From the NCBI GenBank assembly GCA_022703585.1, contig JAKLDJ010000001.1:440695-504694 (forward strand): DNA of 64,000 bases, in the 5' to 3' direction. A model generated the notes under the pieces. It ran no database searches and was not told where the DNA came from. It was given only the letters and a program-made list of their open reading frames with translations. The translations under genes and the position numbers were made by a program. This document shows, piece by piece, positions 31,517 through 60,491 of this stretch (its first letter is position 1; every line of letters begins with the position of its first letter). This DNA comes from Candidatus Omnitrophota bacterium (GTDB taxonomy: Bacteria > Omnitrophota > Gorgyraeia > Zapsychrales > JAKLDJ01).

Positions 31517-31574
31517 TCAATCCTCCAAGTACTGTAATAATTATAATTAAAATAGCAGTAATCGTAGCAGGTTT

Positions 31575-33688: not shown

Positions 33689-33696
33689 TGACCACT

Positions 33697-33834: not shown

Positions 33835-33878
33835 CGCTGCCACGAGCTCGGTATCGCAATCCCATCGCGCGCAAAAAT

Positions 33879-34085
33879 ATGACCCGATTATTCTGTTTGA
33901 TTATTATGTTTTATCAAAAAGTGAGCAGATTTTTCTTGCCTCCCTCCTGCCGTTTCTATCCGTCGTGTTCGCACTATGCGATAGCTGCCGTAAAGAAGCA
34001 TGGATTCTTTAAAGGGCTGGTAAAATCTTTGTGGCGTATTGTGCGCTGCTCCCCCCTGTCTCCCGGCGGATACGATCCCGCATAA
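33879..34085 (+). CDS. yidD: Membrane protein insertion efficiency factor YidD.
   Basis: [11 protein letters not shown] motif. Begins only about 45 nt after rpmH. Confidence 0.85.
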
Positions 34086-34153
34086 TAGCCCTATGAACAT
34101 GCATACTAAAAAAAACCAGAAGCGTATCATTCAACCGGAAAGATTCTAATATC

Positions 34154-35782
34154 ATGGAAAAAAGAACGCTCATAGCCGTTGCCCTATCCCTGTTTGTCTT
34201 ATTTTCGTATAATTCTTTGGTTATGCGGTACCAAGCAGCCCATCCCGATAAAAATAAGGATATTGCGTCACAAGTAGTTGCTAATAAATATGTTACAGAT
34301 ATCCAACCTCAAATACCCCCCACCGCTTCTTTCGCGGAACCTGCGATTCCGGTCGCTTCTCAGAACATAATAGAAAAGTTACAAGATATTGATACAGATA
34401 AACTTAAGATCGAGATATCGAATATAGGCGGTAATATAAAAAATATTACGTTAAAAGATTTTAAACAGAATTTTTATTTAGAGAATCTATTTAATCTGGC
34501 CGGATACGAGAATTCCGCATTTACTTTAGTTAAAGACGATAACAATCGTGTGTCGTGTTTATTCGAAGACGGAGACTTTCGAGTTATAAAGACATATGAA
34601 ATATTGCCAGGTACTTACGGTATCAGCGTTTCAGTGGATATAATTAATAAAAACAAAATGTCCAAACTGAAAACATTCAAGATATCTAATTTTACTATGA
34701 ACTTTAGCTATTTGGACAAAGATCCAGGATCGAATCGCGACAAGAGTTTATTTGAATATGCAATAAAATTTCAGGATAGCATTACTAGAAAAGGAAATGC
34801 ATTTTCTTTTAATAAGAAAGAATATACAAAGAAAGCCGGAATTATTGAATGGGTCGGGTTTAGAAATAGATATTTTTGTTTTATTTCAAAGCCGGAATTC
34901 AATACGGATTATTATTTTATAGAACCAATGGGTGACAAAGAAGCGAAGATTGGTGTTGAAGTTGGGCAGGGAGAAATAAATCCCGGAGAGCGCGTTTCTT
35001 ATAAATTTAAAGCCTATGCCGGGCCCCAAGATGAAGATTTATTGGTCAAATACGATCCAAAATTTGTAGAATTCGTAAGTTTTAGCAATTTTGGTATTAT
35101 TGATATCATATCAAAATGGACGGTAAAATCTCTTAAATTTCTTAATGGAATAATCCATAATACGGGGGTTTGTATAATATTAGTTAGCATTGGTTTTTAT
35201 TTGGCCATGTATCCGCTGACTCTAAAAGGTATGGGTTCTATGCGGAAAATGCAGCTTCTTCAGCCGGAAATAGCCAAGCTTCGGGAGCAATATAAGACTA
35301 ATCCCCAGAAGATGAATACCGAAGTAATGCAGCTTTACAAGAAGAATGGCGTTAATCCCCTAGGAGGGTGTTTTCCATTTTTGCTGCAGATGCCGGTTTT
35401 TATAGGGCTTTATCAGGCTTTATGGCGGTCTTTTTATCTAAAAGGAGGGAGCTTCTTGTGGATAAAAGACCTATCAGAACCGGACAGATTGTACATTTTT
35501 AAATACACGCTACCTGTAATCGGTAATGAATTGAATGTTTTGCCGATTATCATGATGGCAGTTATGTTCTTGCAGCAGAAGCTGTCATCCATGAATATAA
35601 AAACAACTGACCCGTCGCAGTTAATGCAACAGAAAATGATGGGGATATTTTTCCCCATATTCCTAGGGTTTATTTTCTACGGATTCTCGAGCGGTATTAC
35701 TTTATATTTCACAGTTTTTTATTCTTTATCGACGATAACACAATGGAAAATGTCCAAAATGAACGGAACGAAAAATGTTTAA
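34154..35782 (+). CDS. yidC: Membrane protein insertase YidC.
   Basis: N-terminal TM plus periplasmic domain. Conserved C-terminal 60-kDa IMP core (NPLGGCFPFLLQMPVFIGLYQAL). Confidence 0.9.
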   Translation: MEKRTLIAVALSLFVLFSYNSLVMRYQAAHPDKNKDIASQVVANKYVTDIQPQIPPTASFAEPAIPVASQNIIEKLQDIDTDKLKIEISNIGGNIKNITLKDFKQNFYLENLFNLAGYENSAFTLVKDDNNRVSCLFEDGDFRVIKTYEILPGTYGISVSVDIINKNKMSKLKTFKISNFTMNFSYLDKDPGSNRDKSLFEYAIKFQDSITRKGNAFSFNKKEYTKKAGIIEWVGFRNRYFCFISKPEFNTDYYFIEPMGDKEAKIGVEVGQGEINPGERVSYKFKAYAGPQDEDLLVKYDPKFVEFVSFSNFGIIDIISKWTVKSLKFLNGIIHNTGVCIILVSIGFYLAMYPLTLKGMGSMRKMQLLQPEIAKLREQYKTNPQKMNTEVMQLYKKNGVNPLGGCFPFLLQMPVFIGLYQALWRSFYLKGGSFLWIKDLSEPDRLYIFKYTLPVIGNELNVLPIIMMAVMFLQQKLSSMNIKTTDPSQLMQQKMMGIFFPIFLGFIFYGFSSGITLYFTVFYSLSTITQWKMSKMNGTKNV

Positions 35783-35975
35783 TGCTCCTAAAAGCATAGA
35801 ATCGGATGGGGCCACAGTTGAGGAAGCTATCGGAAAAGCTCTTAAAATTCTAGGCGTACCAAAAGAAGCTGTCAAGATCAAGATTGTCAGCGAAGAGAAG
35901 ATGGGCTTGTTTGGAATGGCTGGTTCAAAGCCTGCCCGGGTCATTGTTACACTGAAGCCATATAAAGAAAAATAA
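35775..35975 (+). CDS. Jag/KhpB N-terminal-domain-only protein (lacks KH/R3H domains).
   Basis: 66 aa. TVEEAIGKALKILGVPKEAVKIKIVSEEKMGLFG matches the Jag_N signature. Sits at the canonical position after yidC. Confidence 0.55.
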   Translation: MFNAPKSIESDGATVEEAIGKALKILGVPKEAVKIKIVSEEKMGLFGMAGSKPARVIVTLKPYKEK

Positions 35976-36029
35976 TCTTGATTTTTTGTTTTTTGGAATT
36001 AGAATAATAAACAAAAGGACGATTTAAAT

Positions 36030-36045
36030 TGTTTCACGTGAAACA
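36030..36045. promoter_or_regulatory. parS centromere site 1 (TGTTTCACGTGAAACA).
   Basis: 16/16 match to the consensus parS palindrome. Coordinates ±2. Confidence 0.8.
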
Positions 36046-36066
36046 TTAATTGTCCGATAATTGAAA

Positions 36067-36082
36067 TGTTCCACGTGAAACA
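36067..36082. promoter_or_regulatory. parS centromere site 2 (TGTTCCACGTGAAACA).
   Basis: 16-bp palindrome identical to B. subtilis-type parS, 13 nt before the parA ATG. Confidence 0.8.
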
Positions 36083-36094
36083 TTGCCTCGAATT

Positions 36095-36892
36095 ATGGGT
36101 AAAATCATTTCCATCTGCAATCAAAAGGGCGGCACAGGGAAAACCACGACAGCCGTAAACCTTTCTGCCTCATTGGCTTTGCTTGGCAAGCGTGTTCTAC
36201 TGGTTGATTCTGATCCGCAAGGAAATGCCACCAGCGGGCTAGGCGTCAACAAAAATACGATAGAAAAATCCATTTACGATGTCTTGCTGACGCACGCTAC
36301 GGTCAAAGAAATTTCCATTAAGAGTCACATTGCCAATTTGGACATTGCGCCTTGCAATATTAATTTAACCGGCGCAGAGATTGAATTAGTCGGAGCGCTT
36401 TCTCGCGAAACAAGATTGCGCCGCGCGCTTGGAGTAGTAAAAGAAGAATATGATTTTATTTTTATCGATACACCGCCGTCGTTAGGATTAATTACGCTCA
36501 ACGCTTTTGTCGCTAGCGATTCTATTGTCATCCCGATCCAATGCGAATTTTATGCGCTCGAAGGTGTGTCGCAGTTATTGAAAACTATTAATCTAATCCG
36601 GGAAGGACTGAACACCAATCTTGATATCGAAGGCGTTTTGTTGACGATGGCGGATTTCAGGACTAATTTGACGACGGAAGTAATTAACGAAATAAAAAAT
36701 TATTTTAAAGAAAAAGTTTACAAGACTATTATTCCGCGCAACGTGAAATTAAGCGAGGCGCCGAGTTTCGGGAAACCGATTGCGCTGTATGACCGCGCGT
36801 CGATCGGCGCGAAAAAATACGACGAGTTCGCCAAAGAATTTCTCGGGCAATCCGTCGAGAGAACAGAAAACATTTCCGCACACAAAGAATAG
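36095..36892 (+). CDS. parA: Chromosome partitioning ATPase ParA/Soj.
   Basis: Deviant Walker A KGGTGKTTTAVNL. The track's TTG start 12 nt upstream is possible. Confidence 0.92.
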   Translation: MGKIISICNQKGGTGKTTTAVNLSASLALLGKRVLLVDSDPQGNATSGLGVNKNTIEKSIYDVLLTHATVKEISIKSHIANLDIAPCNINLTGAEIELVGALSRETRLRRALGVVKEEYDFIFIDTPPSLGLITLNAFVASDSIVIPIQCEFYALEGVSQLLKTINLIREGLNTNLDIEGVLLTMADFRTNLTTEVINEIKNYFKEKVYKTIIPRNVKLSEAPSFGKPIALYDRASIGAKKYDEFAKEFLGQSVERTENISAHKE

Positions 36893-36901
36893 GGGGGCGT
36901 C

Positions 36902-37753
36902 ATGGAAAATAGGGCTCTGGGCAAAGGCCTTTCCGCACTCATACCCGAAAAGGTCAGTGTCGACCGGCATGAAAGTGTGACCTATGTCAGAATCGCGGAC
37001 CTTAAGGAAAATTCTCTGCAGCCGCGGCTGGATTTTGATAGCGAGAAATTATCCGAGCTGATCGCTTCCATAAAAGAGAAGGGAGTGCTGCAGCCGATTC
37101 TGGTTAGAAAAAAAGGGGAAGGCTATGAGGTTATTGCCGGCGAAAGAAGATTGCGCGCCGCCCGGTCACTTAAGATGGAAGAAGTTCCGGTTGTCGTCAA
37201 AACTGTTAATGACCAAGAAGCTTTAGTGTTGGCATTGGTTGAAAATATTCAGAGAGAAGAGCTGAATGCTATTGAAGAAGCCAAGGCTTTTAAGCGGCTT
37301 ATTGAAGAATTTAATTTTACGCAAGACTATGTGGCGCAATCAGTTGGGAAAGAGAGGACAACGGTTGCCAATATTTTGCGCTTGCTTAAACTTCCCGCGG
37401 AAATGCAAAAATGTATTTCCAACGGAACACTTTCCGTCGGGCACGGACGTGCACTTTTAAGTATTGAGAACGAGAGTTTGCAGAAAAAACTTTTTTCTAA
37501 AACAATCAAGAAGGGGTTATCCGTTCGCGAACTCGAGAATTTAGTCAATGCTTCAAGTGGGCGCGGTGCCAAACGCCGCAAAGAGGGAGCCTCTGCCGGT
37601 AAAGATATTTATCTGGCTTCGCTCGAGGAGGATTTACAAAAGGCCCTCGGGACCAAGGTCCGTATCGAGGCCAAACAGAAGAGGGGCAGAATCGTTATCG
37701 AATATTATTCCAACGAGGATTTGGACCGGATCGCCGGAATTATAAAGAAATAA
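36902..37753 (+). CDS. parB: Chromosome partitioning protein ParB/Spo0J.
   Basis: ParB box GERRLRAA, helix-turn-helix. Confidence 0.92.
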   Translation: MENRALGKGLSALIPEKVSVDRHESVTYVRIADLKENSLQPRLDFDSEKLSELIASIKEKGVLQPILVRKKGEGYEVIAGERRLRAARSLKMEEVPVVVKTVNDQEALVLALVENIQREELNAIEEAKAFKRLIEEFNFTQDYVAQSVGKERTTVANILRLLKLPAEMQKCISNGTLSVGHGRALLSIENESLQKKLFSKTIKKGLSVRELENLVNASSGRGAKRRKEGASAGKDIYLASLEEDLQKALGTKVRIEAKQKRGRIVIEYYSNEDLDRIAGIIKK

Positions 37754-47992: not shown

Positions 47993-49036
47993 ATGTCTTG
48001 GGATTTTGAGAAAATAGAAAACGAAGCAAGACAGGAAATATCCATGGCGCCCGACTCGGCAGCCGTTGAGGCAATTCGCGTTAAGTATCTGGGCCGCAAG
48101 GGCTTAGTATCCGAGATTTATTCGAATCTACCTAATGTCCCCGCAGAGGAAAAGCCCTTAGTCGGAAAAAATGCCAACATCCTAAAGAATAAAGTTACCC
48201 AGTGGCTCCAAGAAAAAGGGCAGACAATCGAAGAGCAAAAACGGCAGCAGTCATCCGCTGAGAAAAGACTCGACGTTACCATGCCCGGAGCCGGCGCAAC
48301 AATCGGCCACCGCCACATCCTGACCCAAACAGTTGATGATATCTGCCGTATTTTTGAGGGGATGGGTTTTGTTACCTTTGAAGGCCCTGAGGTAGAAACG
48401 GAATTTAATAATTTTTCCGCCCTGAATATCCCCATTGATCATCCTTCGCGCGATGCCTTTGATACTTTTTACGTTGACGTCAAAGACCCGGACAAAAAAG
48501 ACAGGTTTCTTTTATTACGCAGCCATACCTCGCCGGCGCAAATCCGGGTTATGAAAAAATACACCCCGCCCTTAGCGGTTATTGTCCCGGGAAAGGTGTA
48601 TCGCCCCGACGCTGTTGACGCCAGCCATTCGTTTATGTTTCATCAGGTAGAAGGGCTTTTGGTTGACGAAAAAGTAAAATTCTCCGATCTTAAAGGGCTG
48701 CTGACGATTTTTTGCCAAAGGCTTTTCGGCGAAGAAATAAAAATGCGTTTTCGCCCGCACTTTTTTCCTTTTACCGAACCTTCCGCTGAAGTAGACATTT
48801 CCTGTTATATCTGCAAAGGAAAGGGTTGCTCGGTTTGCGGCCGCAAAGGCTGGCTCGAGATCTTAGGCTCGGGGATGGTGCATCCGAAGGTTTTTGAGGC
48901 CGTCGGCTATCCTTTAAAGAAATATACCGGGTTTGCCTTTGGCATGGGTGTTGAGCGCATCGCCATGCTTAAATATGGCATTAACGATATCCGCCTGTTC
49001 TTCGAAAACGATACACGGTTTTCGAATCAATTTTAA
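47993..49036 (+). CDS. pheS: Phenylalanine--tRNA ligase alpha subunit.
   Basis: Class II core motifs (FRPHFFPFTEPSAEVD, GFAFGMGVERIAML). Confidence 0.95.
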   Translation: MSWDFEKIENEARQEISMAPDSAAVEAIRVKYLGRKGLVSEIYSNLPNVPAEEKPLVGKNANILKNKVTQWLQEKGQTIEEQKRQQSSAEKRLDVTMPGAGATIGHRHILTQTVDDICRIFEGMGFVTFEGPEVETEFNNFSALNIPIDHPSRDAFDTFYVDVKDPDKKDRFLLLRSHTSPAQIRVMKKYTPPLAVIVPGKVYRPDAVDASHSFMFHQVEGLLVDEKVKFSDLKGLLTIFCQRLFGEEIKMRFRPHFFPFTEPSAEVDISCYICKGKGCSVCGRKGWLEILGSGMVHPKVFEAVGYPLKKYTGFAFGMGVERIAMLKYGINDIRLFFENDTRFSNQF

Positions 49037-49368
49037 TTTCCAGCAATAGCGACTCCCCTGTAAATCAATATACCCCAAGCGCTTATATAATAATTATTGC
49101 GATTTGCTCTTTCGCCAGCGTTTTTATTCAGGTAAGAAAATACGGCAAATTTTCTGAAGAAAATTTGCCGCAAGCGGGGTAAAAAACTTCCTTTAAAAAA
49201 CTGTTTTTGAGGAACCGCTTCCTTAATTTTCCAGGTTACTATTGTTTGCCTCCCCTATATAAGATATACTTTTAATAGAACAATCAGACGCATATTTTCT
49301 TCGGGAAAGGGTAAAATTTTCCGGAGAAGGGCTTTTTTTACCCCAGGGTTTATTTATAGAGGGAAACC

Positions 49369-49398
49369 GGCGGCCCCTGTTGGCAGGGGCCGCCGCCC
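49369..49398 (+). terminator. 12-bp GC hairpin after pheS (possible terminator separating pheS from the array).
   Basis: cggcggcccctg-ttgg-caggggccgccg followed by cccgaaatatttcttt. Confidence 0.4.
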
Positions 49399-49458
49399 GA
49401 AATATTTCTTTAGCGAAGATTTTTCTCCAGTTCTGTTTAGAAACAGAGAGAGGGAAAC

Positions 49459-51324
49459 ATGAAAATAATTCTATCTATTGTTACCGCAATTTTGCTGTTG
49501 GCTGTGTTTTTTTCGCCCGCCTACGCCCAGACCGAGACCATGACGCTGACCACCTACTACCCTGCGCCACTGGGATTCTACAGTCAATTAAGACTGGTGC
49601 CGCGTAGCGCGACCTTGGGCCCGCCGGTTACATGCGATAACGCAAGCAAGGCTTCTTCCTTGGGTGTGATGTGGCTTGACGGGAGTCTGGGAGTCGATAC
49701 TCTTAAAATCTGTCAAGACGATGGCACCGGTACTCTTACCTGGACAACTCTTGGTAGCGGTGGCGGCGGCAGCCTTTGGACCAGAACCGGCAGCAATCTT
49801 TATCCCATCAATATAACCGACAATATCGGCGTGGGAACACAAGCACCCCAAGCTCCCTTGCACATACGGAATGGCACTAACCCTAACATTATTCTGGAAT
49901 ATGACCTCAATCACAAATTAGAATTAACCCATAACGGCACCGATGGTGTTATCACGACAGACACGGGAGCTATTCGATTGGAGCCTAACTTGGGCGTGTC
50001 GACGTTCACCGAAATCGGCGGCACGGGCGGCCTGATGAGCACGTTACTAACGACGCGAGGGACGGCGATTCAAGGAATCTCAGAGCAAACCGCAGGCGCA
50101 GGGGATAATACGGGTGTCTATGGTAGGGCTGGCGGAGGGGGATTGACGGCCACAAAATACGGCGTTCAAGGAATCGCAGCCAGCGATGACGCGGGGCTTA
50201 AGGTCGGTGTTTACGGTGAAGCCGGCGGCATTGACGGACGAAAATATGGGGTCTACGGAAGGGTAGCTGCGGATGACTCATCTGATAAATACGCACTCTA
50301 TGCAAGAACGATAGGAGGAAATGTTAGCGCGAATATATACGGTTTAGATACCTGGGCGTTTGGCAATGCCGGTACGAAGTATGGAGTAAACGCATCGGCT
50401 ACCGGCTTGGGCGGGGATAATTATGCTGTAAAGGGCGGGTCCACCAGTGTGGGGGGCACAACAGGCTATGGCCTTTATGGTTCATCTGTGGGAGCGGGAA
50501 CAAATTATGGTGTCTACGCAACCGCCTCCGGGGGCAGCACCAACTATGCCGGGTATTTTGCCGGCGATTTAGCTATAAGCAACCAACCCGCAGGAACGCA
50601 CTCAAGACTTTTTATTAACGGCGATGGCAAGTTGCAAATCACATCCTCCAACAGCCTTAAGAATCGACTGGTTATTGGGGAGCCCCTTGCCAGCATGTCC
50701 ATGGCTAACGCTGCGGGTATGGACATCGGGACTCCCGGGTCACCCGGGGGCGCTAACGCCTTTATAACCCTGGGCACAAACAGCACTAATGAATATGGGT
50801 ACCTGGGGTGGATAGGTACTAACCCCGGGTTCGAATATATTTCACTCCTTTCGACGGGAGGTATTAATTTGATTTCCAGGCTTCCGACCAGTGTCCAGGA
50901 AAACCGTTTGCGTATTACAAACGACGGCCATATTTACCTTGACACGCTTATTTCCGGGGCCGGTAACGCCTCGATACGATACAATACGACGACAAAAGAA
51001 ATAACCTATACTCCGCTTGTTTCTTCAAAGCGCTATAAGAAAGATATCGCAAATCTCGAGTTTGATACGGACGGATTGTATTCTTTGCGGCCCGTTTCGT
51101 TTACGTGGAAAGAGAGCAGCATACGGGATTTTGGCCTTATCGCTGAAGAGGTGGATGAGGTCTTGCCCTCGCTGGTGGCCTATGATGCTCAAGGCAGGCC
51201 CGATAGCGTGGCTTATGACAAGTTACCCGTCCTACTTTTAGTCGAAATGCAAAAACTGCGCGCGGAAAACCGCGCGCTGCAAGAACGCGTCGAGAAGTTA
51301 GAGGCTGCGGTCGGCGCAGAATAA
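49459..51324 (+). CDS. Secreted fibre-like paralog 1 (621 aa): signal peptide, conserved family N-domain, Gly/Tyr-rich repeats, C-terminal Peptidase-S74 intramolecular chaperone domain (as in phage tail fibre/endosialidase).
   Basis: Signal peptide with AYA|QTE cleavage site. N-domain QTETMTLTTYYPAPLGFYSQLRLVPR...LKICQDDGTG...NLYPINITDNIGVGTQAP. YGVxG repeats. C-terminus SSKRYKKDIANLEFDTDGLYSLRPVSFTWK...GLIAEEVDEVLPSLVAYD...coiled coil = S74 signature. Confidence 0.8.
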   Translation: MKIILSIVTAILLLAVFFSPAYAQTETMTLTTYYPAPLGFYSQLRLVPRSATLGPPVTCDNASKASSLGVMWLDGSLGVDTLKICQDDGTGTLTWTTLGSGGGGSLWTRTGSNLYPINITDNIGVGTQAPQAPLHIRNGTNPNIILEYDLNHKLELTHNGTDGVITTDTGAIRLEPNLGVSTFTEIGGTGGLMSTLLTTRGTAIQGISEQTAGAGDNTGVYGRAGGGGLTATKYGVQGIAASDDAGLKVGVYGEAGGIDGRKYGVYGRVAADDSSDKYALYARTIGGNVSANIYGLDTWAFGNAGTKYGVNASATGLGGDNYAVKGGSTSVGGTTGYGLYGSSVGAGTNYGVYATASGGSTNYAGYFAGDLAISNQPAGTHSRLFINGDGKLQITSSNSLKNRLVIGEPLASMSMANAAGMDIGTPGSPGGANAFITLGTNSTNEYGYLGWIGTNPGFEYISLLSTGGINLISRLPTSVQENRLRITNDGHIYLDTLISGAGNASIRYNTTTKEITYTPLVSSKRYKKDIANLEFDTDGLYSLRPVSFTWKESSIRDFGLIAEEVDEVLPSLVAYDAQGRPDSVAYDKLPVLLLVEMQKLRAENRALQERVEKLEAAVGAE

Positions 51325-51421
51325 TCGCATTGTTATCCTCTCGCGGAGATATTCAGAATTGGTGACGCTTCCTCCGAGCTATCGGTAAAGACGGATATTT
51401 CTTTAGAAAGAAGGATCGGGC

Positions 51422-53032
51422 ATGAAAAAACTACGAATTATTATTCTTCTCGTCGTGATGGCGGCTATGGTCGCGGTTACCGCCTACGCCCAGACCGAGA
51501 CCATGACGCTGACGACATATTATCCGGCGCCACTGGGATTTTATAGCCAGTTAAGGCTGGTACCGCGTGACGGGGCCGCCTTGGGCCCACCGGTTACATG
51601 CGATAATGCAAGCCGGATTTCTGCCCTGGGCGTGATGTGGCTTGACTCAAGCTTGGGAGTTGATACTCTTAAAATCTGTCAAGACGACGGCACAGGTACG
51701 GGCACTCTTGCCTGGATGTCTGTTGGCAGTGGTGGTGGCGGAAGTCTTTGGGCCAGAACCGGAAGCAATCTTTATCCAACTAACATAGGAGACAATGTTG
51801 GGGTTGGTACTGCTGCGCCGGAACAAAAATTACACATCGAGGGTGCTTTTCCGACACTTCTTATCAAGGGTACCGGAGCTCCGGGCCTTGTTCTTCGCGA
51901 TACTGATGCTGCCGGCGGTAGCTGGCCGTATATAGCCTTCAGCGGAAATGAAGGCGCGGCTATTACTGGCGATGACAGCTCGCAGGAAATATTCGGGTTT
52001 TATAGCGCTTTCACGGATCCCCGTAGCAACGATGCGGAAATTCGTATCCACGGCAAAGGCGCTGGCTGGGGCAACTATTTATCTTTAACTCACGACGGCA
52101 CCGACGGAATTATTTCAACCGATATTGGTAATATTGCCATTAATCCAGAGCGTGGTGCTAGCCCAAAAGGTGTTGCCATTGGTGTACCGGATGCAAGCTT
52201 AAACAACGCTCAGGCTCTTACTATCGGTAACAATGTTAATGCAGTCGATTGGAGAAACAAACTCGGGTACAACAATATCCGCATTGGTGGCGCCGGAGCC
52301 TTGCCGAATAATTGGCCGATGATCATTTTTGATGATGCAAACCAGGCCAATACACTCTGGTCCCTGTCTAATACTGAGCATTCCAACTACAATGATTTTC
52401 TTATAGAAAAAATCGATACCACATCAGGTATTGGTTCTGCTGTTCTGCTATTAGGAGGTGCCAATAGTTTATCAGCGCTGTTTGGGGTGAGCGGTCCCTG
52501 GGGATTATGGGGTCATAAATTCGAAGGACTTCAGTCAGAGGTCCGGATGGACTCTACCCAACTAATGAATACCTCGAACGTCCGCATAGGCAGAATCGGC
52601 AACGTCAATAACGGCAATGGCGCGGTTATATTAGAAACAACGAGAAACGGCGGCCATCAGGTATTAATGAATATTGATGACAATGGAGTCTTGCAGGTCC
52701 AAGGGGCACTTGCGAGCACGTCATCCAGTTCGCAGTCGCTTACGAGTACGTCATTCAGTTCGAGACGGACATACGGCGTTTATATTGTATCCGATGGCGG
52801 TACCGAAGAATGGAAGACTATCGGCGCATGGGATATGTGTTTTCTTGGGACGCATGCGGAAAATCATTCCCTGGTTGGAGGTCAGTGTGATGTTTATAGC
52901 GATCAACTCCCGCCACCCGACAATACGATCTCGTTTAACCCAAATACGCAACCGACTTGGAAAATACATGCTAAGCGGAATGGAAGCAACGGCACAATAG
53001 CTTGTAGGGCAACCTGCGTGAATTTTCGATAA
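51422..53032 (+). CDS. Secreted fibre-like paralog 2 (536 aa): same N-domain, shared middle module with paralog 5, Cys-containing C-terminal knob, no S74 domain.
   Basis: AYA|QTETMTLTTYYPAPLGFYSQLRLVPR... Module LHIEGAFPTLLIKGTGAPGLVLRDTDAAG...AEIRIHGK...YLSLTHDGTDG. C-terminus ...GTIACRATCVNFR. Confidence 0.8.
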   Translation: MKKLRIIILLVVMAAMVAVTAYAQTETMTLTTYYPAPLGFYSQLRLVPRDGAALGPPVTCDNASRISALGVMWLDSSLGVDTLKICQDDGTGTGTLAWMSVGSGGGGSLWARTGSNLYPTNIGDNVGVGTAAPEQKLHIEGAFPTLLIKGTGAPGLVLRDTDAAGGSWPYIAFSGNEGAAITGDDSSQEIFGFYSAFTDPRSNDAEIRIHGKGAGWGNYLSLTHDGTDGIISTDIGNIAINPERGASPKGVAIGVPDASLNNAQALTIGNNVNAVDWRNKLGYNNIRIGGAGALPNNWPMIIFDDANQANTLWSLSNTEHSNYNDFLIEKIDTTSGIGSAVLLLGGANSLSALFGVSGPWGLWGHKFEGLQSEVRMDSTQLMNTSNVRIGRIGNVNNGNGAVILETTRNGGHQVLMNIDDNGVLQVQGALASTSSSSQSLTSTSFSSRRTYGVYIVSDGGTEEWKTIGAWDMCFLGTHAENHSLVGGQCDVYSDQLPPPDNTISFNPNTQPTWKIHAKRNGSNGTIACRATCVNFR

Positions 53033-53048
53033 TATGCCCTGAAGGACG

Positions 53049-54458
53049 GTGAGGATGAGAAAAACCTTTATGATCTTTCTTGGCGCGGTTTTAGCGATGA
53101 CAGCAACCTTTGCCCTCGCCCAAACCGAATCCATGACACTGACAACGTATTACCCTGCGCCACTGGGATTTTATAGCCAGTTAAGGCTGGTACCGCGTGA
53201 CGGGGCCGCCTTGGGCCCACCGGTTACATGCGATAATGCAAGCCGGATTTCTGCCCTGGGCGTGATGTGGCTTGACTCAAGCTTGGGAGTTGATACTCTT
53301 AAAATCTGTCAAGACGATGGCACTGGCACTCTCACCTGGGTCCCTGTTGGCGGCGGCGGTGGCGGTAGCAGTTTTTGGAATAGAACCGGTACTAATCTTT
53401 ATCCAGTCAACATAGACGACAATATCGGCATCGGGACAAATGCCCCGGCTACTAAGTTGCATGTCCAGGGAGTCGGAGACCCGACAGTAACCATCGAAGT
53501 TACGGGTGGCGGCATGGGACGGCCCACGGTTCAATTTCTCGGTAATAACGGCGTTATTGCAGCTGATGTTGGCGGAAAGGTTGCTATTACCAACAGCACT
53601 GCTATTGATGTTCCGTCCGACTTTGATGAAAATCAGGTCCAGGGTCTCACGATTGTAGGCAGAGCGACACCGATCGATGAAAATATGCATTTGACACACT
53701 CGAACGTTCGTATAGGCAGAGGAACCCTGATGAACGGGCCCATGATACTACTGGATAGCACATCGTCTGACCGCACCTGGTTTATAGAGGCAAATAAAGT
53801 GAATGGTTGGAACGGAGGCGCCACAACGTCTGACCTGACCCTTGGTTACCAGATGATTGGCGGCGCTACCTACAATGCCATGCACATCGGCGGGCCGAAT
53901 AGAAGAGCCGTGCTTTTTGGCTGGGACTCGGGCAATCCCGCCAGCCGTTCTTTTAGCGGGGTGCAATCAGAAGTGACTTTTAGTCCGGCAGCAGCGTTGA
54001 TGAATTCGGGCAATGCGCGTATCGGTGTTGTCCGGTCAGGCAGCCGCTCCGGCGGGGCGCTCATTCTGGAAAGTTATGATGCCACAAATCCCGCGCTCCA
54101 CCCCCAATTTCGGATCTATGCGGATGAAATCGGACAACTCAATTTCGGCCCTGCGGGAGCGATCAGCAAATTCGACGGTAACGTTTGGATTACTAATAGT
54201 TTAAATGTTTCTGGGGCGGGGATGGGACAGCAAACAACTCTGCAGAACACGACGGTGAACGGCGAGCTAACTGTTCCGTTCAATCGTTGGGGAACAGACC
54301 CTGGCGCTGGATCAAACGTAGCGATACCATCAAGTTGTGTTAGGGCTGCTAATAGTGCCGAACAAGGTTGTCAATGTCCCGACGGATCTTACATGGTCGG
54401 TTTCTCTATAACTAACGGCACCAATAATGGTTTTTCAATTTACTGCAGGCGACTCTAA
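53049..54458 (+). CDS. Secreted fibre-like paralog 3 (469 aa): same N-domain (about 160 nt nucleotide-identical to paralog 2), divergent body, Cys-containing C-terminal knob.
   Basis: ALA|QTESMTLTTYYPAPLGFYSQLRLVPRDGAALGPPVTCDNASRISALGVMWLDSSLGVDTLKICQDDGTG. C-terminus ...EQGCQCPDGSYMVGFSITNGTNNGFSIYCRRL. Confidence 0.8.
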   Translation: MRMRKTFMIFLGAVLAMTATFALAQTESMTLTTYYPAPLGFYSQLRLVPRDGAALGPPVTCDNASRISALGVMWLDSSLGVDTLKICQDDGTGTLTWVPVGGGGGGSSFWNRTGTNLYPVNIDDNIGIGTNAPATKLHVQGVGDPTVTIEVTGGGMGRPTVQFLGNNGVIAADVGGKVAITNSTAIDVPSDFDENQVQGLTIVGRATPIDENMHLTHSNVRIGRGTLMNGPMILLDSTSSDRTWFIEANKVNGWNGGATTSDLTLGYQMIGGATYNAMHIGGPNRRAVLFGWDSGNPASRSFSGVQSEVTFSPAAALMNSGNARIGVVRSGSRSGGALILESYDATNPALHPQFRIYADEIGQLNFGPAGAISKFDGNVWITNSLNVSGAGMGQQTTLQNTTVNGELTVPFNRWGTDPGAGSNVAIPSSCVRAANSAEQGCQCPDGSYMVGFSITNGTNNGFSIYCRRL

Positions 54459-54476
54459 ACTTTATCGAGGTGACAT

Positions 54477-56459
54477 ATGGTTGGATTAAAATATCTGATT
54501 ATCTTGGCCGTTCTTCTCATAGGAATCCCCGCCCACGCTCAAACCGAATCCATGACTATGACCACCTATTACCCGGCGCCGCTGGGATTTTATAATCAGA
54601 TGCGTTTGGTGCCTCGTATCGCGGCACCCGGCCCATGTGACCTTACCGATGCGACCTCCTCTCCAGGCCTGATGTGGTTTGACCAGGCAATCAATACTCT
54701 TAAAATCTGTCAAGACGATGGCACCGGCGCAGGTAGTATTGCCTGGATGTCTCTTGGCGGCAGCGGTGGAGGTGGCGGTCTTTGGACCAGAACGGGCAAC
54801 AATCTTTATCCAGCCAACATCGGCGACAGGGTCGGCATCGGGACCGACAATCCCGGCGTGACTCTGGATGTGGTGGGGCAAACCGGGATACGCATTAACG
54901 ATAATATTGATAATTGGCCGGCGCGGATCAGAATGGTTGATACAGTGGTCGAGGGAGCCGGAACAAGAGACGATTTGATGATGGAGACGGACGGCGGCTT
55001 ATTTGTTCAACTGGACAATAATAATAACGGGATTTCGGGCATTGTGGGTTTCGGCATTCTGGACGGGCAAAACAACGTGCTGGTGAACGTGCTCGAGGAT
55101 AATGGCAATGTCGGCATCGGGACAGGGATTGACGCCCCTACTGCCAAGTTGCAAGTTAAAGATGGAGTTGTGCTTTTTGACGGCGATATCGGATCGACTC
55201 CCGTCTCCGGCGTCGGAACACGCTTCATGTGGATACCCGAAAAACATGCGTTACGGGCAGGCCACGTGGCTGAGGAACGGCCTTTGGTGTGGGATGATGC
55301 CAACATAGGGATGAATTCATTCGCGGCCGGCCTTAATCCGGAAGCGAGCGGAGCTCAAAGTATAGCGCTTGGTCAGAACGTAACGGCGCAAGGCCAGCGG
55401 TCGGTAGCGCTAAACAGCGGAACCCAGGCGCTGGGCCTGGGCAGTCTTGCGACGGGAGGCGTCACACAAGCCACGGCAGATTGGAGTACGGCAATGGGGT
55501 TCCGCGCAAGAGCCTTGCATGAAAAGTCATTTGCCATTGGCCTAGATGTGGAAGAAAGCGAACAATGCGATACGACAGCAGAGGGGCAACTTATGCTGTG
55601 CGGTGAAGAGGTTGTTCTGGGCAATCTCAGTTTCGACGGTGCCATATTCCGGCAAGGTGCAACGCTGTATGGAAATCAGGCGGCAACGCATGTGAACTTA
55701 GGTACCGCCGGCACAACCGGTGATGAATTTCTAAATAATACCTATTGTACCGTTTCGGGAGGGCGTAGCAATCAGGCAAAAGGAAGCTTTTCGACTGTCG
55801 CGGGAGGTGAGAACAACTACACTCTTTTTAATGCGACCCATGGTACGGTCTCGGGAGGACGGTGGAATTCAGCTCAAGGTGATTATGCGACTTCTCCCGG
55901 AGGCTGGGATAACGATGCTATGGGCCAATATTCGTTTGCAGCCGGACGAGAGGCCAAGGCCGATGATGTGGGGTCTTTTGTCTGGTCCGCCAGCAGCTCA
56001 GGTGCGGAGTGCCATTCCAGCGGTGACTACAGCTTTACGGCCTGTGCGCCGGGAGGGGTTTTCTTGAGGGGGGAAGTTTTTTTGCCGAACATCCATATCG
56101 GTCCGCCGCCCGGTTCGATGTTTCAATATAGCCTGTACATGAATGAGAATTTTCAAGTATGGAGGATGGGATCCTCGAAGCGCTACAAAAAAGACATCAG
56201 TGATTTGGAAATAAATTCTGAGAAAATCTATGGATTGCGTCCGGTGTCGTTTACCTGGATCAGCGGTGGCCAGCGGGATTTTGGCCTTATTGCCGAAGAA
56301 ACAGAAGCTGTTATGCCGGAATTAGTATCGTTTGACAAAGACGGCACTCCCGAGAGCGTGCGTTATGACCAGTTGCCGGTTTTGTTGCTTAACGAAATCA
56401 AGAAACTCAACGAAAGAATAACCGTGCTTGAGCAACGGCTGGAGATATACGAGAAATAA
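54477..56459 (+). CDS. Secreted fibre-like paralog 4 (660 aa): same N-domain, divergent body, C-terminal Peptidase-S74 chaperone domain.
   Basis: AHA|QTESMTMTTYYPAPLGFYNQMRLVPR. C-terminus SSKRYKKDISDLEINSEKIYGLRPVSFTWISGGQRDFGLIAEETEAVMPELVSFD...LEQRLEIYEK. Confidence 0.8.
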   Translation: MVGLKYLIILAVLLIGIPAHAQTESMTMTTYYPAPLGFYNQMRLVPRIAAPGPCDLTDATSSPGLMWFDQAINTLKICQDDGTGAGSIAWMSLGGSGGGGGLWTRTGNNLYPANIGDRVGIGTDNPGVTLDVVGQTGIRINDNIDNWPARIRMVDTVVEGAGTRDDLMMETDGGLFVQLDNNNNGISGIVGFGILDGQNNVLVNVLEDNGNVGIGTGIDAPTAKLQVKDGVVLFDGDIGSTPVSGVGTRFMWIPEKHALRAGHVAEERPLVWDDANIGMNSFAAGLNPEASGAQSIALGQNVTAQGQRSVALNSGTQALGLGSLATGGVTQATADWSTAMGFRARALHEKSFAIGLDVEESEQCDTTAEGQLMLCGEEVVLGNLSFDGAIFRQGATLYGNQAATHVNLGTAGTTGDEFLNNTYCTVSGGRSNQAKGSFSTVAGGENNYTLFNATHGTVSGGRWNSAQGDYATSPGGWDNDAMGQYSFAAGREAKADDVGSFVWSASSSGAECHSSGDYSFTACAPGGVFLRGEVFLPNIHIGPPPGSMFQYSLYMNENFQVWRMGSSKRYKKDISDLEINSEKIYGLRPVSFTWISGGQRDFGLIAEETEAVMPELVSFDKDGTPESVRYDQLPVLLLNEIKKLNERITVLEQRLEIYEK

Positions 56460-56501
56460 CATTGCTAGTGCGATAAGAAAGATTTTAAAAAAGTAAAAAC
56501 C

Positions 56502-58241
56502 ATGAAGAAACTATTTCTCGCCGTTTTAATTTCGACATTGGTGACAACTGTCACTCATGCCCAGACCGAGTCTATGAATCTAACCACCTACTACCCGGCG
56601 CCGATGGGAAATTATAACCAGTTGCGCTTGGTCCCGCGCGGAGGTGCACCGGTAACCTGCAATAACGCCAATCCGGATTCCGCGGGTGTGATGTGGTTTA
56701 ATCAGGCAACCAATAGTTTTCATATCTGTCAAGACGATGGCACAGGTGTTATTACCTGGGTATCTATCGGCGGCGTTGGCGGCGGCAATCTTTGGGCCAG
56801 AACCGGCAATAATCTTTATCCAGCCAACCTAGGCGATAATGTCGGCATCGGAACCCAAACACCGCAACAAAAACTGCATATCGAAGGCGCTTTTCCAATA
56901 CTGCTTATCCGCGGTACCGGAGCCCCGGCCCTTGTCCTTGACGATACCGATGCTGCCGGCAGCCGGCCTTTTATAAAATTCGGCGGAAACAGCCTGGGAG
57001 CTTTCATCGGACAAGACTCCTGGCATCAGACATTTGAATTTTATAGCGACTTTCAGCTTACCCGCGCTCACGACGCGGAAATCCGCGTCCACGGCAAAGC
57101 CCCCGGCGGCAGTTGGGATAGATATTTATCATTAACCCACGACGGGACAGACGGGTACATTGAAACAGATGTCGGCGACATTGTTATTAATCCGAAAGAG
57201 ACGGATGTAGCCATACCCGAGCCGGCATTATCCATTGATGCTGCCTCAAAAAATATAGGAATACGCACCAGCGACGTGACTCCTCAGGCAACTGTTCAAA
57301 TCGGCAATAACCTGGGTTTTGGATGGGCTCCGCATGCCCTGACTGTCGGAGGTGCGGGTTCGGTCGGGGGCTCGGTGGCGGTCGGTGTAAACAGCAGCAA
57401 AATGGGGGTTTTCCAGCATTCTGCCGCAGGCACTTCGACCGACGTTAGCTCTACGGATGACCTGCGCTTAGGGGCAGCCGGTTCTATTTATCAATCTACG
57501 GCAGGATTAAATCGCATGAAAATCGATACCGGCGGTTCTATTGCTATGTATGCGAATGATGGCGCACTAACGGCTTTTCAAATGGCCAGTACAGGGTCAA
57601 TGTTTTTTCAGGGCCCGGCTTCTTTTAGCCAGCCTCTGAGTATCGGCAACAGTATTGACGATGACGTGGATGTTAGCTTGGGAGAGCACAATACTGTTTG
57701 TTGGGATTCGAAATGTATTCGCGGGATCAATTCGCCCGGCGGCAGCTGGCTTCAGTTCGGGCACTTTGTTTCCGGGGCATGGGATACCGTAATGTCTTTG
57801 GCGACTGCGCCGTCTACAGGATTGGGTATTAGCGGCTCTTTGAATATATCGGGCACAGCCACTAAACCGGGCGGCGGGCCCTGGAGCGCTTCTTCTGATG
57901 CCCGTCTTAAAAAGAATATTGCGTCGATCGATAATGCACTTGACACCATGCTTTCTCTTCGCGGAGTTACCTTTGAGTGGAGAGAACCGGAAAAGCAAGG
58001 CAATCTGACCGGGCCGCAGATGGGCCTGATTGCCCAAGAAGCAGAAAAGGTGTTTCCTCAGTGGGTGACGACCGGAGAAGACGGTTATAAGATTTTGTCG
58101 ATCCGGGGATTCGAAGCCCTCGCCATCGAGGCCATGCGCGACATGAAAAAAGAGATCGATCAGCTAAAACAGGAAAATCAAGAGTTGCGCCGGGAACTTG
58201 ATACGCTTAAGAAAGTTCCCGACGGAGATTCTCCTATTTAG
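56502..58241 (+). CDS. Secreted fibre-like paralog 5 (579 aa): same N-domain, paralog-2-type middle module, C-terminal Peptidase-S74 chaperone domain.
   Basis: THA|QTESMNLTTYYPAPMGNYNQLRLVPR. Module LHIEGAFPILLIRGTGAPALVLDDTDAAG...AEIRVHGK...YLSLTHDGTDG. C-terminus SSDARLKKNIASIDNALDTMLSLRGVTFEWRE...GLIAQEAEKVFPQWV...coiled coil. Confidence 0.8.
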   Translation: MKKLFLAVLISTLVTTVTHAQTESMNLTTYYPAPMGNYNQLRLVPRGGAPVTCNNANPDSAGVMWFNQATNSFHICQDDGTGVITWVSIGGVGGGNLWARTGNNLYPANLGDNVGIGTQTPQQKLHIEGAFPILLIRGTGAPALVLDDTDAAGSRPFIKFGGNSLGAFIGQDSWHQTFEFYSDFQLTRAHDAEIRVHGKAPGGSWDRYLSLTHDGTDGYIETDVGDIVINPKETDVAIPEPALSIDAASKNIGIRTSDVTPQATVQIGNNLGFGWAPHALTVGGAGSVGGSVAVGVNSSKMGVFQHSAAGTSTDVSSTDDLRLGAAGSIYQSTAGLNRMKIDTGGSIAMYANDGALTAFQMASTGSMFFQGPASFSQPLSIGNSIDDDVDVSLGEHNTVCWDSKCIRGINSPGGSWLQFGHFVSGAWDTVMSLATAPSTGLGISGSLNISGTATKPGGGPWSASSDARLKKNIASIDNALDTMLSLRGVTFEWREPEKQGNLTGPQMGLIAQEAEKVFPQWVTTGEDGYKILSIRGFEALAIEAMRDMKKEIDQLKQENQELRRELDTLKKVPDGDSPI

Positions 58242-58252
58242 TTTCTTGCCAA

Positions 58253-58282
58253 AACTCTTCGCAGGCGAGAGATTTTTTTGTT
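58253..58282 (+). terminator. Intrinsic terminator after the paralog array.
   Basis: ctcttcgc-agg-cgagag followed by attttttt. Confidence 0.45.
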
Positions 58283-58451
58283 TTATTTGAATATTTTCCT
58301 TGCATTCTGCTTTCAGCCGCCCCCGCGAGAGGCTGTGGCTCTTATTGCGTGCCACCGCGCACTCTTTCCATAAAATATTTCCTTTTCAATTCCCCTTCGA
58401 TACGCTAATATAGAATGTCACTTTCTTCTTGATCCAAAAAATAATTTTAAA

Positions 58452-60491
58452 ATGAAATTATCCTATAACTGGCTTAAAAATTATATCGCGGTCAACGTGA
58501 ACGCCGAAACCCTAGCCCACAAACTCACCATGGCGGGCTTGGAGGTTAAGGCGATTGACACGGTTGACAGCGACAGCGTATTTGAAATAGAAATCACGCC
58601 TAACCGTCCGGATTGCTTAAGCGTCCTGGGCATTGCCCGTGAGGCGTCGGCGATTTTTAATAAGCCTCTCAAGATCCCCGCTGTTAAGAACTTAAAACTT
58701 CCCAAACAAAAATGTGACCTGGCGATCCTGGATAAAAAGGATTGTTTGCGCTATATCGGCTGTCTCATAAATAATGTTTCGGTCAGGCAATCCCCTGAAT
58801 GGATCAAAAAACCTTTAACCGCCGTAGAACTGCGCACCATTAACAACGTTGTCGATATTACGAATTTTGGCCTTATGGAAACCGGCCAGCCCATGCACGC
58901 CTTTGACTTTGACAAGTTAGCCGGGGGAAAGATTATTGTCCGCCGCGCCAAGGAGGGCGAAAAAATCATTACCATCGATGGTATTGAGAGAAAACTTGAT
59001 CCCTCGATTTTGGTTATTGCCGACGAGAAAAAGACAGTGGCCATTGCCGGTATCATGGGCGGGAAGGAAACCGAGGTTACCGAATCGACAAAAAATATTC
59101 TGTTGGAAAGTGCCTACTTTGAACCGATTTTGATAAGGCGCGCCGGGCGTAAGCTGGGCTTGAGCACGGACGCGTCGTATCGTTTTGAGCGCGGGGTTGA
59201 CATGGAGGGGGTTGAGCAGGGTGCCCGGCGCGCCACTGCGCTTATCTGCCAAGAAGCGGGCGGCAGCATTCAGGGGTATTTTGATTTATATCCCGGTAAA
59301 CGAAAAGATGTAAAACGCCAAACCAGCATTACCAAAAATCAAATTGACGAATTTTTAGGTGCCCCCATTTCGCTTGAGCGGGGCAAGGCTATTTTAAACA
59401 GGCTCGGGTTTAAAACCGCCAACGGCGCCAAAGGTGCGTTAAAGATTTCTATTCCCCCTTTTAGAAACGATGTCAAAGGCGATGTCGATATCATCGAGGA
59501 GATTGCCCGGGTCGTGGGTTATGATAATTTGCCCGTGACCTTGCCCGAGGTAAAATTTTCTAATGTGGCTGTGAATCCGAATCGGATTCTAAGAAAGAGG
59601 GTAACGGACAGCCTTCTGGCCTTAGGGCTTAACGAAGCCGTCAGCTATTCGATGACCAGCCGAAAGAATATTGAGGCCGCAAAGCTTGACTCTGCGCTTG
59701 CCGTCAAAGTCAAAAACCCCTTAACCCTCGAGCAGGAATGTTTAAGATTTTCGATGCTGCCCAGCTTATTGGAACTGATATCGATTAATCTCAACCGCGG
59801 GCAGAGGGATATAAAATTCTTCGAGGCCGGAAAAACCTATTTTACCGACGGAGAGAAAGAAACCTTGGGGATTATCATGTCGGGGCACCTATCGGTCGAC
59901 TGGCGAAAAGGCATCAAGGCCGAGGCAGATTTTTATGACATCAAGGGCGTGATTGAAAATACCCTCGAAAAAATCGGCGTTACACCTGTTGAATGGGTAC
60001 CGAACAAGTCTCCCGTATTCGAACCGGGGCAGGGTGCCGAGATTATTTTAAATGGCGAGGCTGTCGGCGCCTTAGGGGCAATAGCCGCCGAGATTTTGCA
60101 CCGGTGGGACATAAAGCAAAAGGGTATTTTGTTTGCCGAACTTGATTTGGAAACAATATATGCCCAGGCGGCTAAAAAAACCGCCGGACGAAAATACTGC
60201 CCCCTGCCGACTTTTCCGGCGGTGGTACGAGATTTAAGCCTGGCTATTAAAAGCGAAGTCAGTTTTCAACAGGTCCGCGAAACAATCCAAAAGACCGCCG
60301 GAGACCTTTTAGCCTCGGTTAAATTAATAGAACAGTATTTAGGCGAAAAAATTCCGCCGGGTCAGCGCGGATTAGTCCTTTCCTTGACTTATCAATCCTC
60401 GGCACGGACGCTGCGCGAAGATGAAGTGAATCAAGCTCACGAGAAAATCTGCAAAGCCCTGATTGACACCTTCGGCGCTGTCCGACGATAA
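58452..60491 (+). CDS. pheT: Phenylalanine--tRNA ligase beta subunit (short form lacking the EMAP-like tRNA-binding insert).
   Basis: MKLSYNWLKNYI... B1 N-terminus, B3/4 and B5 domains, C-terminal anticodon-binding. 679 aa. Confidence 0.95.
   Translation: MKLSYNWLKNYIAVNVNAETLAHKLTMAGLEVKAIDTVDSDSVFEIEITPNRPDCLSVLGIAREASAIFNKPLKIPAVKNLKLPKQKCDLAILDKKDCLRYIGCLINNVSVRQSPEWIKKPLTAVELRTINNVVDITNFGLMETGQPMHAFDFDKLAGGKIIVRRAKEGEKIITIDGIERKLDPSILVIADEKKTVAIAGIMGGKETEVTESTKNILLESAYFEPILIRRAGRKLGLSTDASYRFERGVDMEGVEQGARRATALICQEAGGSIQGYFDLYPGKRKDVKRQTSITKNQIDEFLGAPISLERGKAILNRLGFKTANGAKGALKISIPPFRNDVKGDVDIIEEIARVVGYDNLPVTLPEVKFSNVAVNPNRILRKRVTDSLLALGLNEAVSYSMTSRKNIEAAKLDSALAVKVKNPLTLEQECLRFSMLPSLLELISINLNRGQRDIKFFEAGKTYFTDGEKETLGIIMSGHLSVDWRKGIKAEADFYDIKGVIENTLEKIGVTPVEWVPNKSPVFEPGQGAEIILNGEAVGALGAIAAEILHRWDIKQKGILFAELDLETIYAQAAKKTAGRKYCPLPTFPAVVRDLSLAIKSEVSFQQVRETIQKTAGDLLASVKLIEQYLGEKIPPGQRGLVLSLTYQSSARTLREDEVNQAHEKICKALIDTFGAVRR

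Follow-up and report, generated by a model that had tools for sequence, protein, structure and literature searches.

The 64,000-nucleotide (nt) stretch of Candidatus Omnitrophota bacterium DNA analyzed here, called the window below (contig JAKLDJ010000001.1, positions 440,695 to 504,694), carries five paralogous genes in a row that would encode Sec-exported, phage-tail-fibre-like surface proteins. The mature forms of all five share a motif of about 23 residues close to their N-terminus, and the same motif was found at the same place in a large set of other predicted secreted proteins. We infer, tentatively, that it serves these proteins as a common docking peptide, by which interchangeable passenger domains are mounted on a single shared partner. 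All positions given below are counted from the first letter of the window.

An N-Terminal Motif Common to Five Paralogs

Directly after the Sec leader, all five mature proteins begin with QTE[TS]M.[LM]TTYYPAP[LM]G.Y.Q[LM]RLVPR. An earlier note on this DNA, made by reading the sequence, had described an AxA|Q signal-peptidase I site followed by this motif in each paralog. The pair was seen in five of five, but two details had to be amended: the leaders of paralogs 1 to 5 end in AYA, AYA, ALA, AHA and THA, the last giving THA|Q, and paralog 4 reads M-T-M-TT and not M.LTT. In paralog 1, the predicted signal peptide is encoded at 49459–49527 on the + strand (MKIILSIVTAILLLAVFFSPAYA, then Q; assigned by inspection and the simple −3/−1 rule) and the core motif at 49534–49602 (+; ETMTLTTYYPAPLGFYSQLRLVP, residues 26–48). 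The core motifs of paralogs 2, 3, 4 and 5 are located at 51497–51565, 53127–53195, 54546–54614 and 56568–56636, all on the + strand. The span 49525–49860, to which the earlier note had drawn attention, corresponds to residues 23–134 of paralog 1. The first ~116 mature residues include 53 invariant columns, and paralogs 2–5 are 61–82% identical to paralog 1 there, compared with 35–42% identity over the full length, where the C-terminal halves could not be aligned. The claim that a conserved mature N-terminus heads otherwise divergent proteins was thus borne out.

Paralogs 1 and 2 differ in 11 of the 26 motif codons, and all 11 differences are synonymous, with no non-synonymous change. The other paralog pairs show 7–14 synonymous and 1–5 non-synonymous differences over the same codons, and a 98-nt repeat covering the motif is 67–85% identical to paralog 1 at the DNA level. 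The motif is under strong purifying selection: because the synonymous sites have diverged, its identity is maintained by selection on the protein, and recent gene conversion was ruled out as the source of that identity. Paralogs 2 and 3 are the only pair with a 218-nt tract (51482–51699 and 53112–53329) that is 94% identical, far above the other pairs, which points to a recent duplication or local gene conversion of this tract.

Separation of the Motif from Generic Fibre Modules

The earlier note had included in the conserved region several blocks located further in, namely C..G.MW.D, LKICQDDGTG and GGGG.LW.RTG.NLYP...GIGT..P...LH. These blocks were present as described, but they were not specific for the N-terminus. 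At E ≤ 0.001, an exhaustive profile search with the 116-residue region against 1.84 billion representative proteins had 11,092 hits. Almost all covered profile positions ~60–116 alone, often repeatedly within one protein; a single protein of 5,875 amino acids (aa) contained 49 copies of this segment. In paralog 1, a Cys-bridged hairpin module (49603–49755, +; C59...G.MWLD...LKIC85QDDG...W95..LG) is followed by the first shaft repeat (49756–49866, +; W..tG.NLYP...N[IV]G[IV]GT..P...LH[IV]). Both are generic. The hairpin is an internal repeat elsewhere, occurring (as G.MW.D.....L.IC.D..G..W..I) seven times inside protein P0126 and also in other proteins, and the shaft repeat resembles the "capping-loop" motif of the mosaic adhesive trimeric (MAT) fibres of Bdellovibrio bacteriovorus.

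Matches to the whole region, beginning at profile position 1–3, were found only at residues ~20–31 of smaller proteins, right after the leader. The exception was P0146, with the motif at 138–144, where the start call is apparently over-extended. Among the best 150 of the 11,092 hits, 17 of the 17 whole-N-domain matches from outside the window carried [ST]YYP[AS]P.G.Y, and these were found independently of the motif search pattern described below. The remaining hits among the best 150, giant repeat proteins included, did not contain the motif. Because the hairpin and the GIGT..P...LHV block of the shaft recur as generic internal repeats, the whole ~115-aa region was excluded as an N-terminal signal. 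The N-terminus-specific part is only about the first 23 mature residues, and the later blocks are first copies of generic fibre modules.

A Large Family of Secreted Proteins Carries the Motif

As the earlier note had proposed, we searched for other proteins with the motif behind a signal peptide, and at least 170 distinct metagenomic proteins of 65–736 aa were found, with the family consensus E-x-[ILV]-T-[IL]-[TS]-T-Y-Y-P-[SA]-P-x-G-x-Y-x-x-L-[RQK]-L-x-P. A word-indexed search queried with the N-domain of paralog 1 alone gave 0 matches, and an alignment query of the word-indexed database gave 66 further members, most of them 80–140 aa long and consisting of leader, motif and hairpin, with a small Cys knot as an optional addition. 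A scan of metagenome DNA with a degenerate pattern for [ST]-T-Y-Y-P-[AS]-P-x-G-x-Y-x-x-L-x-L gave at least 117 contig stretches with at least 152 motif open reading frames (ORFs) and at least 104 unique complete proteins. At positions left free by the pattern, the matches listed have E at −6 in 85% (D in 8%), I, L or V at −4 in 92%, T at −3 in 87%, I, L, F or V at −2 in 98% and P at +16 in 92%. Among the same matches, the leader ahead of the motif in complete ORFs has a median length of 29.5 aa (interquartile range 28–33), and of the 102 proteins with a signal-peptidase site predicted by rule, 95 have the motif 5–10 residues behind it. ORFs without a usable start codon were cut at contig ends or had an unclear start; one of them, at locus L080, shows no signal-like stretch upstream. 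Tandem arrays of 2–6 genes are common among these matches, with six genes at L064 and three each at L052, L068, L115 and L125.

A Pfam scan of 107 members assigned Peptidase_S74 to 15, YadA_head to 8 and Hint to 2, and the great majority had no Pfam domain. The motif is a portable unit across very different proteins, because the sequence directly after it differs between members: besides the hairpin, it is followed by a shaft repeat (L089) or by unrelated segments (L064, L068 and P0213–P0215). The named members come from Omnitrophota metagenome-assembled genomes (MAGs), except for one MAG labelled Planctomycetota and one labelled Planctomycetales.

Several individual members were also recorded. 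A scan of the genomes of 185,579 species gave a sole hit (L001, 1818–4028), a 736-aa homologue with YadA-like repeats and an S74 end in the Planctomycetales-labelled MAG; inspection of translations showed that it adjoins ExbD- and ExbB-like genes at 4108–5162. In P0145 and one more of the 107 members (alignment A6), a Hint/intein-type autoprocessing module takes the place of S74 at the C-terminus, which would make these proteins a second kind of self-cleaving C-terminus on one N-terminal handle. The minimal members form two tight subfamilies, the P0160 type (102 aa) and the P0154 type (137 aa). One minimal subfamily ends in an aromatic C-terminus (...WVPVSGQYY) and the other in a Cys knot (VVC.K..G.FG.C.NN.S.DGTC.C).

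The Motif Matches No Named Signal, Domain or Phage Protein

The earlier note knew of no named sorting signal with this motif, and our searches agree: neither Pfam, NCBIfam, PHROGs, the PDB and phage and viral collections nor the literature searched contained a named signal or domain that matches it. Pfam and NCBIfam scans placed no family over the N-terminus of the paralogs, and a PDB sequence search with the N-domain found no match even at E ≤ 10. The isolated N-domain had 0 hits in PHROGs. The PHROG matches of the paralogs belong to tail-fibre families and are confined to the S74-bearing C-terminal parts, with the exception of a weak match (E = 0.0074) to the first shaft repeat of paralog 4. 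Likewise, tblastn of the N-domain against 50,697 GenBank phage records found no match, a search of IMG/VR found no relative of the N-terminal region, and a BFVD fold search found no match to it at E ≤ 0.001. A phage origin of the N-terminus is therefore unsupported in PHROGs, phage genomes, IMG/VR and BFVD alike. A search of 8 million full texts for the motif strings found none, and two Omnitrophota papers searched for related terms contained none of them.

Other known N-terminal or anchoring signals were also rejected. A class III prepilin leader (G|F-T-L-x-E) does not fit, as the hydrophobic segment precedes the motif and ends in A/T-x-A|Q, and no prepilin family was found in Pfam or NCBIfam. 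A lipoprotein lipobox does not fit either, since the mature +1 residue is Q and not Cys in five of five paralogs. A trimeric autotransporter anchor was rejected because Pfam and NCBIfam found no C-terminal YadA-type barrel in any paralog; the YadA head-repeat matches of paralog 4 were all below threshold. The earlier note had further suggested N-terminal modification as a reason for the conservation. Pyroglutamate appears not to be a feature of the family, because the mature +1 residue varies among its members. Thr glycosylation also seems unsupported, given that the Thr residues alternate with hydrophobic ones, a pattern that would resemble a β-strand more than a glycosylation site.

Genes Surrounding the Motif Genes

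The earlier note had proposed a search for a co-varying processing enzyme. We clustered every ORF of 90 aa or more at ~113 loci among the matches listed, and the most frequent neighbour family was found in only 8 of the ~113 loci and was a housekeeping one. The recurrent neighbours were genes for pyrimidine synthesis, recA/recX, a MiaB-like radical SAM enzyme and an Lnt-like N-acyltransferase fused to a response-regulator receiver; they reflect synteny between related genomes. The surroundings of single loci were also of the housekeeping kind (recA, pyr genes and radical-SAM genes). A co-located partner gene was therefore rejected for these ~113 loci, as the clustering gave housekeeping synteny only. 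At L006 (8001–8384), the 127-aa member P0210 lies amid several radical SAM/SPASM genes, an HxsD-like gene and GT4 glycosyltransferases, a setting suggestive of peptide maturation or glycosylation that was found at this locus only.

Structure Predictions and Possible Function of the Motif

Two AlphaFold2 monomer models were made, each with a family alignment. In the model of mature residues 1–116 of paralog 1, residues 21–70 form a core with a predicted local distance difference test (pLDDT) score of 83–93, comprising a helix (38–44) and three strands, and motif residues 1–20 are coil with pLDDT 60–63. The 78-residue mature form of the minimal member P0160 was modelled with three strands, residues ~31–70 having pLDDT 75–86, and motif residues 1–20 were again coil (pLDDT 51–58). 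In these monomer models, the motif is predicted to be unstructured and outside the folded core. According to the earlier note, its idea would be refuted if the motif were confined to the five genes, with no partner genes, and were predicted to be simply the first β-strands of the fibre shaft. The refutation failed on two counts: the motif is carried by the at least 170 other proteins described above, and it was modelled as coil. Its residue pattern would fit an amphipathic hairpin, with E.ITITTYY as the first strand, P[SA]P.G as the turn and [VA]Y..L[RK]L.P as the second strand.

The hairpin pattern, the fixed place near a free N-terminus, the near-invariance and the portability are together best fitted by a peptide that would bind one common partner. 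On this docking model, signal peptidase I would cut off the leader and leave the motif 5–10 residues from the new N-terminus. The motif, unstructured when alone, would then bind the common partner, probably by adding a β-strand or hairpin to it, and the partner might be a platform in the cell envelope, or it might form the base of an assembly that the proteins share. All paralogs would be mounted alike, and the C-terminal passenger would be free to vary; the predicted passengers range from S74-matured trimeric fibres and YadA-like heads to Cys-rich knobs, Hint modules and small domains. The suggestion in the earlier note that a common system recognizes the N-terminus is thus partly supported in its general form by selection, fixed position and portability, but no partner for it was found among the ~113 loci.

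Five points weigh against the docking peptide. The surface localisation of the cluster proteins is an assumption. The comparison with the N-terminal regions of the MAT fibres, drawn below, is by description and not by sequence. No neighbour family was present at more than 8 of the ~113 loci, so no partner was found. Among the metagenome matches, TYYP.P.G.Y..L.L is invariant partly because the search pattern demanded it. Finally, the motif could be an inter-subunit strand of a trimer, since the models are of monomers only.

A bolder proposal is that the motif is a new narrow-range protein-sorting or attachment tag, placed directly after the signal peptide and read by a dedicated Omnitrophota machine. 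We regard this as doubtful, and the same holds for the idea that such a tag is the N-terminal counterpart of signals of the LPXTG, PEP-CTERM or type IX secretion system C-terminal domain (T9SS CTD) type. If true, the tag-reading machine would export or mount a large and diverse surface repertoire for contact with hosts or prey.

In a related explanation, which we consider rather unlikely, the motif would be a periplasmic export or sorting signal for an outer-membrane translocation or processing machine, whether or not it is retained in the mature protein. There is precedent in curli, where the N-terminal 22 residues of mature CsgA direct the subunits to CsgG. The strict position beside the signal-peptidase site in complete members agrees with such a signal, as do the passengers of unrelated size and fold, including 65–100-aa proteins without a fibre, and the unstructured motif of the monomer models. 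Dedicated sorting systems such as PEP-CTERM, T9SS CTD and the LPXTG type are typically narrow in taxonomic range, and the range of the named members (Omnitrophota and two Planctomycetota-labelled MAGs) is typical of them. However, known dedicated sorting signals are mostly C-terminal, no machine or conserved neighbour was found in the ~113 loci, and most export signals would be shorter, and look less structured, than 23 residues with an invariant aromatic and proline core.

It is also unlikely, in our judgement, that the motif is an intrinsic N-terminal trimerisation or folding nucleus, in which three hairpins would form a cap without an external partner. By inspection, the amphipathic β-hairpin pattern fits such a cap, and an inter-chain strand would be invisible to monomer prediction. 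The S74 chaperone implies a trimeric protein, and the S74-bearing members must accordingly be trimers; the models of the MAT fibres are trimeric over their full length, including the N-domain (PMC10769870). However, near-invariance of the motif next to a domain that varies or gives way to another would be unexpected for a self-contained interface, the paralogs would gain by diverging and so avoiding mixed trimers, and small proteins without a fibre are also headed by the motif. Binding to a shared partner is favoured here because a pure homotrimer interface would not need identity across paralogs and across the phylum.

Donor-strand polymerisation seems improbable. The motif would be inserted into the next subunit, with the small members forming a filament and the fibre-bearing members decorating it. 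N-terminal extensions act as donor strands in chaperone-usher pilins, TasA fibres and Bacillus endospore appendages, and donor strands are typically unstructured in monomer models, as the N-terminal strand is here. Many members have the size of pilins, the genes are found in tandem arrays of 2–6, and the modelled core, a small three-stranded sheet, might be able to accept strands. Nevertheless, no chaperone, usher or sortase-like gene was found nearby in the ~113 loci, trimeric S74 fibres misfit a linear donor-strand polymer, and the filament itself is hypothetical.

We give very little credence to a role of the opening seven residues of the motif, E-[TS]-[IL]-T-[IL]-T-T, as a TonB-box-like strand pairing with TonB, be it that of the cell itself or of its prey: they resemble the consensus [DE]-T-[ILM]-[TV]-V-[TS]-A of TonB-dependent transporters and colicins and are about as far from the mature N-terminus as a TonB box is, and the L001 homologue adjoins ExbB/ExbD-like ORFs (by inspection), but the most invariant part of the motif, YYP.P.G.Y, is found in no TonB box, Pfam scans of the paralogs and the 107 members showed no Plug, TonB_dep_Rec or TonB-dependent barrel domain, the ExbBD adjacency was seen in one locus and was not recurrent, and the likeness may merely reflect a polar/hydrophobic β-strand.

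The Five-Gene Cluster and Its Surroundings

Among the ORFs of the window, the five paralogs form a head-to-tail array on the + strand, flanked by pheS on the left (47993–49036, +) and pheT on the right (58452–60491, +). Paralog 1 (49459–51324, +; 621 aa) consists of the signal peptide, the N-terminal motif, the Cys-hairpin module, the shaft and a C-terminal Peptidase_S74 chaperone. Paralog 2 (51422–53032, +; 536 aa) has the same N-terminal region, no S74 and a Cys-rich C-terminal tip, and paralog 3 (53055–54458, +; 467 aa from ATG, or 469 aa from a GTG at 53049) likewise has a Cys-rich tip and no S74. Paralog 4 (54477–56459, +; 660 aa) contains the sub-threshold YadA-head-like repeats and S74 at 56172–56327, and paralog 5 (56502–58241, +; 579 aa) has S74 at 57894–58067 (SSDARLK) and a C-terminal coiled coil. 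The NCBI product names of the cluster proteins are "tail fiber domain-containing protein" (paralog 1) or "hypothetical protein".

Peptidase_S74 scored above the Pfam gathering cut-off of 22 bits in paralogs 1, 4 and 5 (41.2, 44.4 and 63.2 bits, respectively), and the Pfam scan gave no Peptidase_S74 match in paralogs 2 and 3. In paralog 1, the domain spans 51022–51177 (+; residues 522–573). By inspection, the spacing of the Ser...Lys dyad (S-D-x-x-x-K) is seen as SDARLK in paralog 5, and in paralogs 1 and 4 it is preserved in the predicted dyad SSKRYK, where S and K are five apart and D is replaced. The Cys-rich tips of paralogs 2 and 3 (52900–53032 and 54300–54458) differ from each other, with sequences such as ...GQCDVYSDQ...ACRATCVNFR and ...CVRAANSAEQGCQCPDGSYMVGFS...IYCRRL; they are probably disulfide-stabilised binding knobs.

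Ordinarily pheS and pheT are neighbours, but here the 9.4 kb cluster (49037–58451) lies between them, with terminator-like hairpins after pheS at about 49295–49340. Over the cluster, terminator-like sites were modestly above chance (18, compared with 11.1 ± 2.9 expected), and promoter-like sites showed no excess over shuffled sequence. Upstream of the cluster are thrS, infC, rplT, two trkA genes and trkH, and then dnaA, dnaN, gyrB, gyrA, yidC, parA and parB, so that the cluster lies ~17 kb from the dnaA/oriC region in housekeeping surroundings. At 24972–37753 lie gyrA, gyrB, dnaN and dnaA (−) and yidC, parA and parB (+), and the strand switch near 33–34 kb is probably oriC.

Three further genes of the window are on the − strand. 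A 928-aa protein (16938–19724) has a Peptidase_C25 (gingipain-type) domain (E = 7e-65), an unusual feature outside Bacteroidota; it may be a secreted protease. At 565–5697, a hybrid sensor kinase of 1710 aa combines a receiver with many PAS domains and with GAF, HisKA and HATPase domains. A type II/IV secretion ATPase (T2SSE) fused to a PilZ domain (12305–13696) suggests a pilus or secretion motor controlled by cyclic di-GMP.

Comparison with Known Systems

Omnitrophota are widespread, ultra-small and uncultured bacteria that are thought to be predators or parasites (PMC10066038). A large set of their predicted secreted proteins bears the motif, among them phage-like fibres with exchangeable tips, and it can therefore serve as a simple sequence handle for cataloguing their likely attachment repertoire. 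A dedicated anchor or export machine that reads the motif, if there is one, would amount to a new surface-display pathway. If the motif is only a trimer cap, the finding would be a family signature useful for annotation.

The closest likeness is to the MAT fibres of B. bacteriovorus, all 21 of which share a ~130-aa domain after the signal peptide (Caulton et al. 2024; PMC10769870). This domain has no PDB homologue and is presumed to bind tightly to a surface element (PMC10769870). In both cases, phage-like fibre genes lie on the chromosome of a small host-dependent or predatory bacterium, and a Sec signal peptide is followed by a region that is conserved in all paralogs (here ~115 aa, from the motif through the hairpin to the first shaft repeat) and has no PDB homologue. 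Both also have S74 and non-S74 tips side by side and many paralogs with swapped tips, and the shaft described here may share the V-G-x-G-x-x-x-P-x-x-x-L capping loops of the MAT fibres. The profile of the shaft repeat matched MAT structures weakly (8ond_A, Bd2133, E = 0.005 in three repeats; 8ojn_C, E = 0.41), and by inspection the paralogs show NVGIGT..P...LHV where the MAT capping-loop pattern is V-G-G/N-pi-x-x-P-x-x-x-L. In contrast to the MAT fibres, the proteins described here belong to another phylum and are shorter (467–660 aa), and their conserved unit is a ~23-residue motif that is separable from the next domain and also heads many small non-fibre proteins. No such motif is mentioned in the text or supplement of that study (PMC10769870) as searched. 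By analogy, the cluster proteins may work like MAT fibres, and their membership of the MAT family is putative. If the putative machine exists, it could bear on what holds MAT fibres on the Bdellovibrio cell.

Phage tail fibres and tailspikes with S74, such as the K1F endosialidase and the L-shaped fibre of T5, share this domain with paralogs 1, 4 and 5, and they too combine a conserved N-terminus for attachment with a variable C-terminus for recognition. However, phage fibres have no signal peptide, whereas the cluster proteins have one, and the cluster lies between pheS and pheT without phage genes around it. The trimeric autotransporters of the YadA family resemble our proteins in the YadA-head-type repeats of paralog 4 and of 8 of the 107 members, and in being fibre adhesins, as is predicted here. 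They differ in their C-terminal β-barrel anchor; the cluster proteins lack such a barrel, their C-termini are S74 or other tips, and their conserved element is N-terminal.

A short, invariant, aromatic- and proline-rich N-terminal peptide on a trimeric fibre, extended when alone, also has parallels in the adenovirus fibre, whose N-terminal tail docks on the penton base through an FNPVYPY motif while the distal end varies, and in Bacillus BclA with its N-terminal exosporium-targeting sequence. This is an analogy, with no sequence relationship claimed; the hosts and assemblies are different, and the docking base is known in those systems. MAT-like fibres with a conserved N-terminal handle are already known, and what is new here is a large, previously undescribed motif family, found so far mainly in Omnitrophota.

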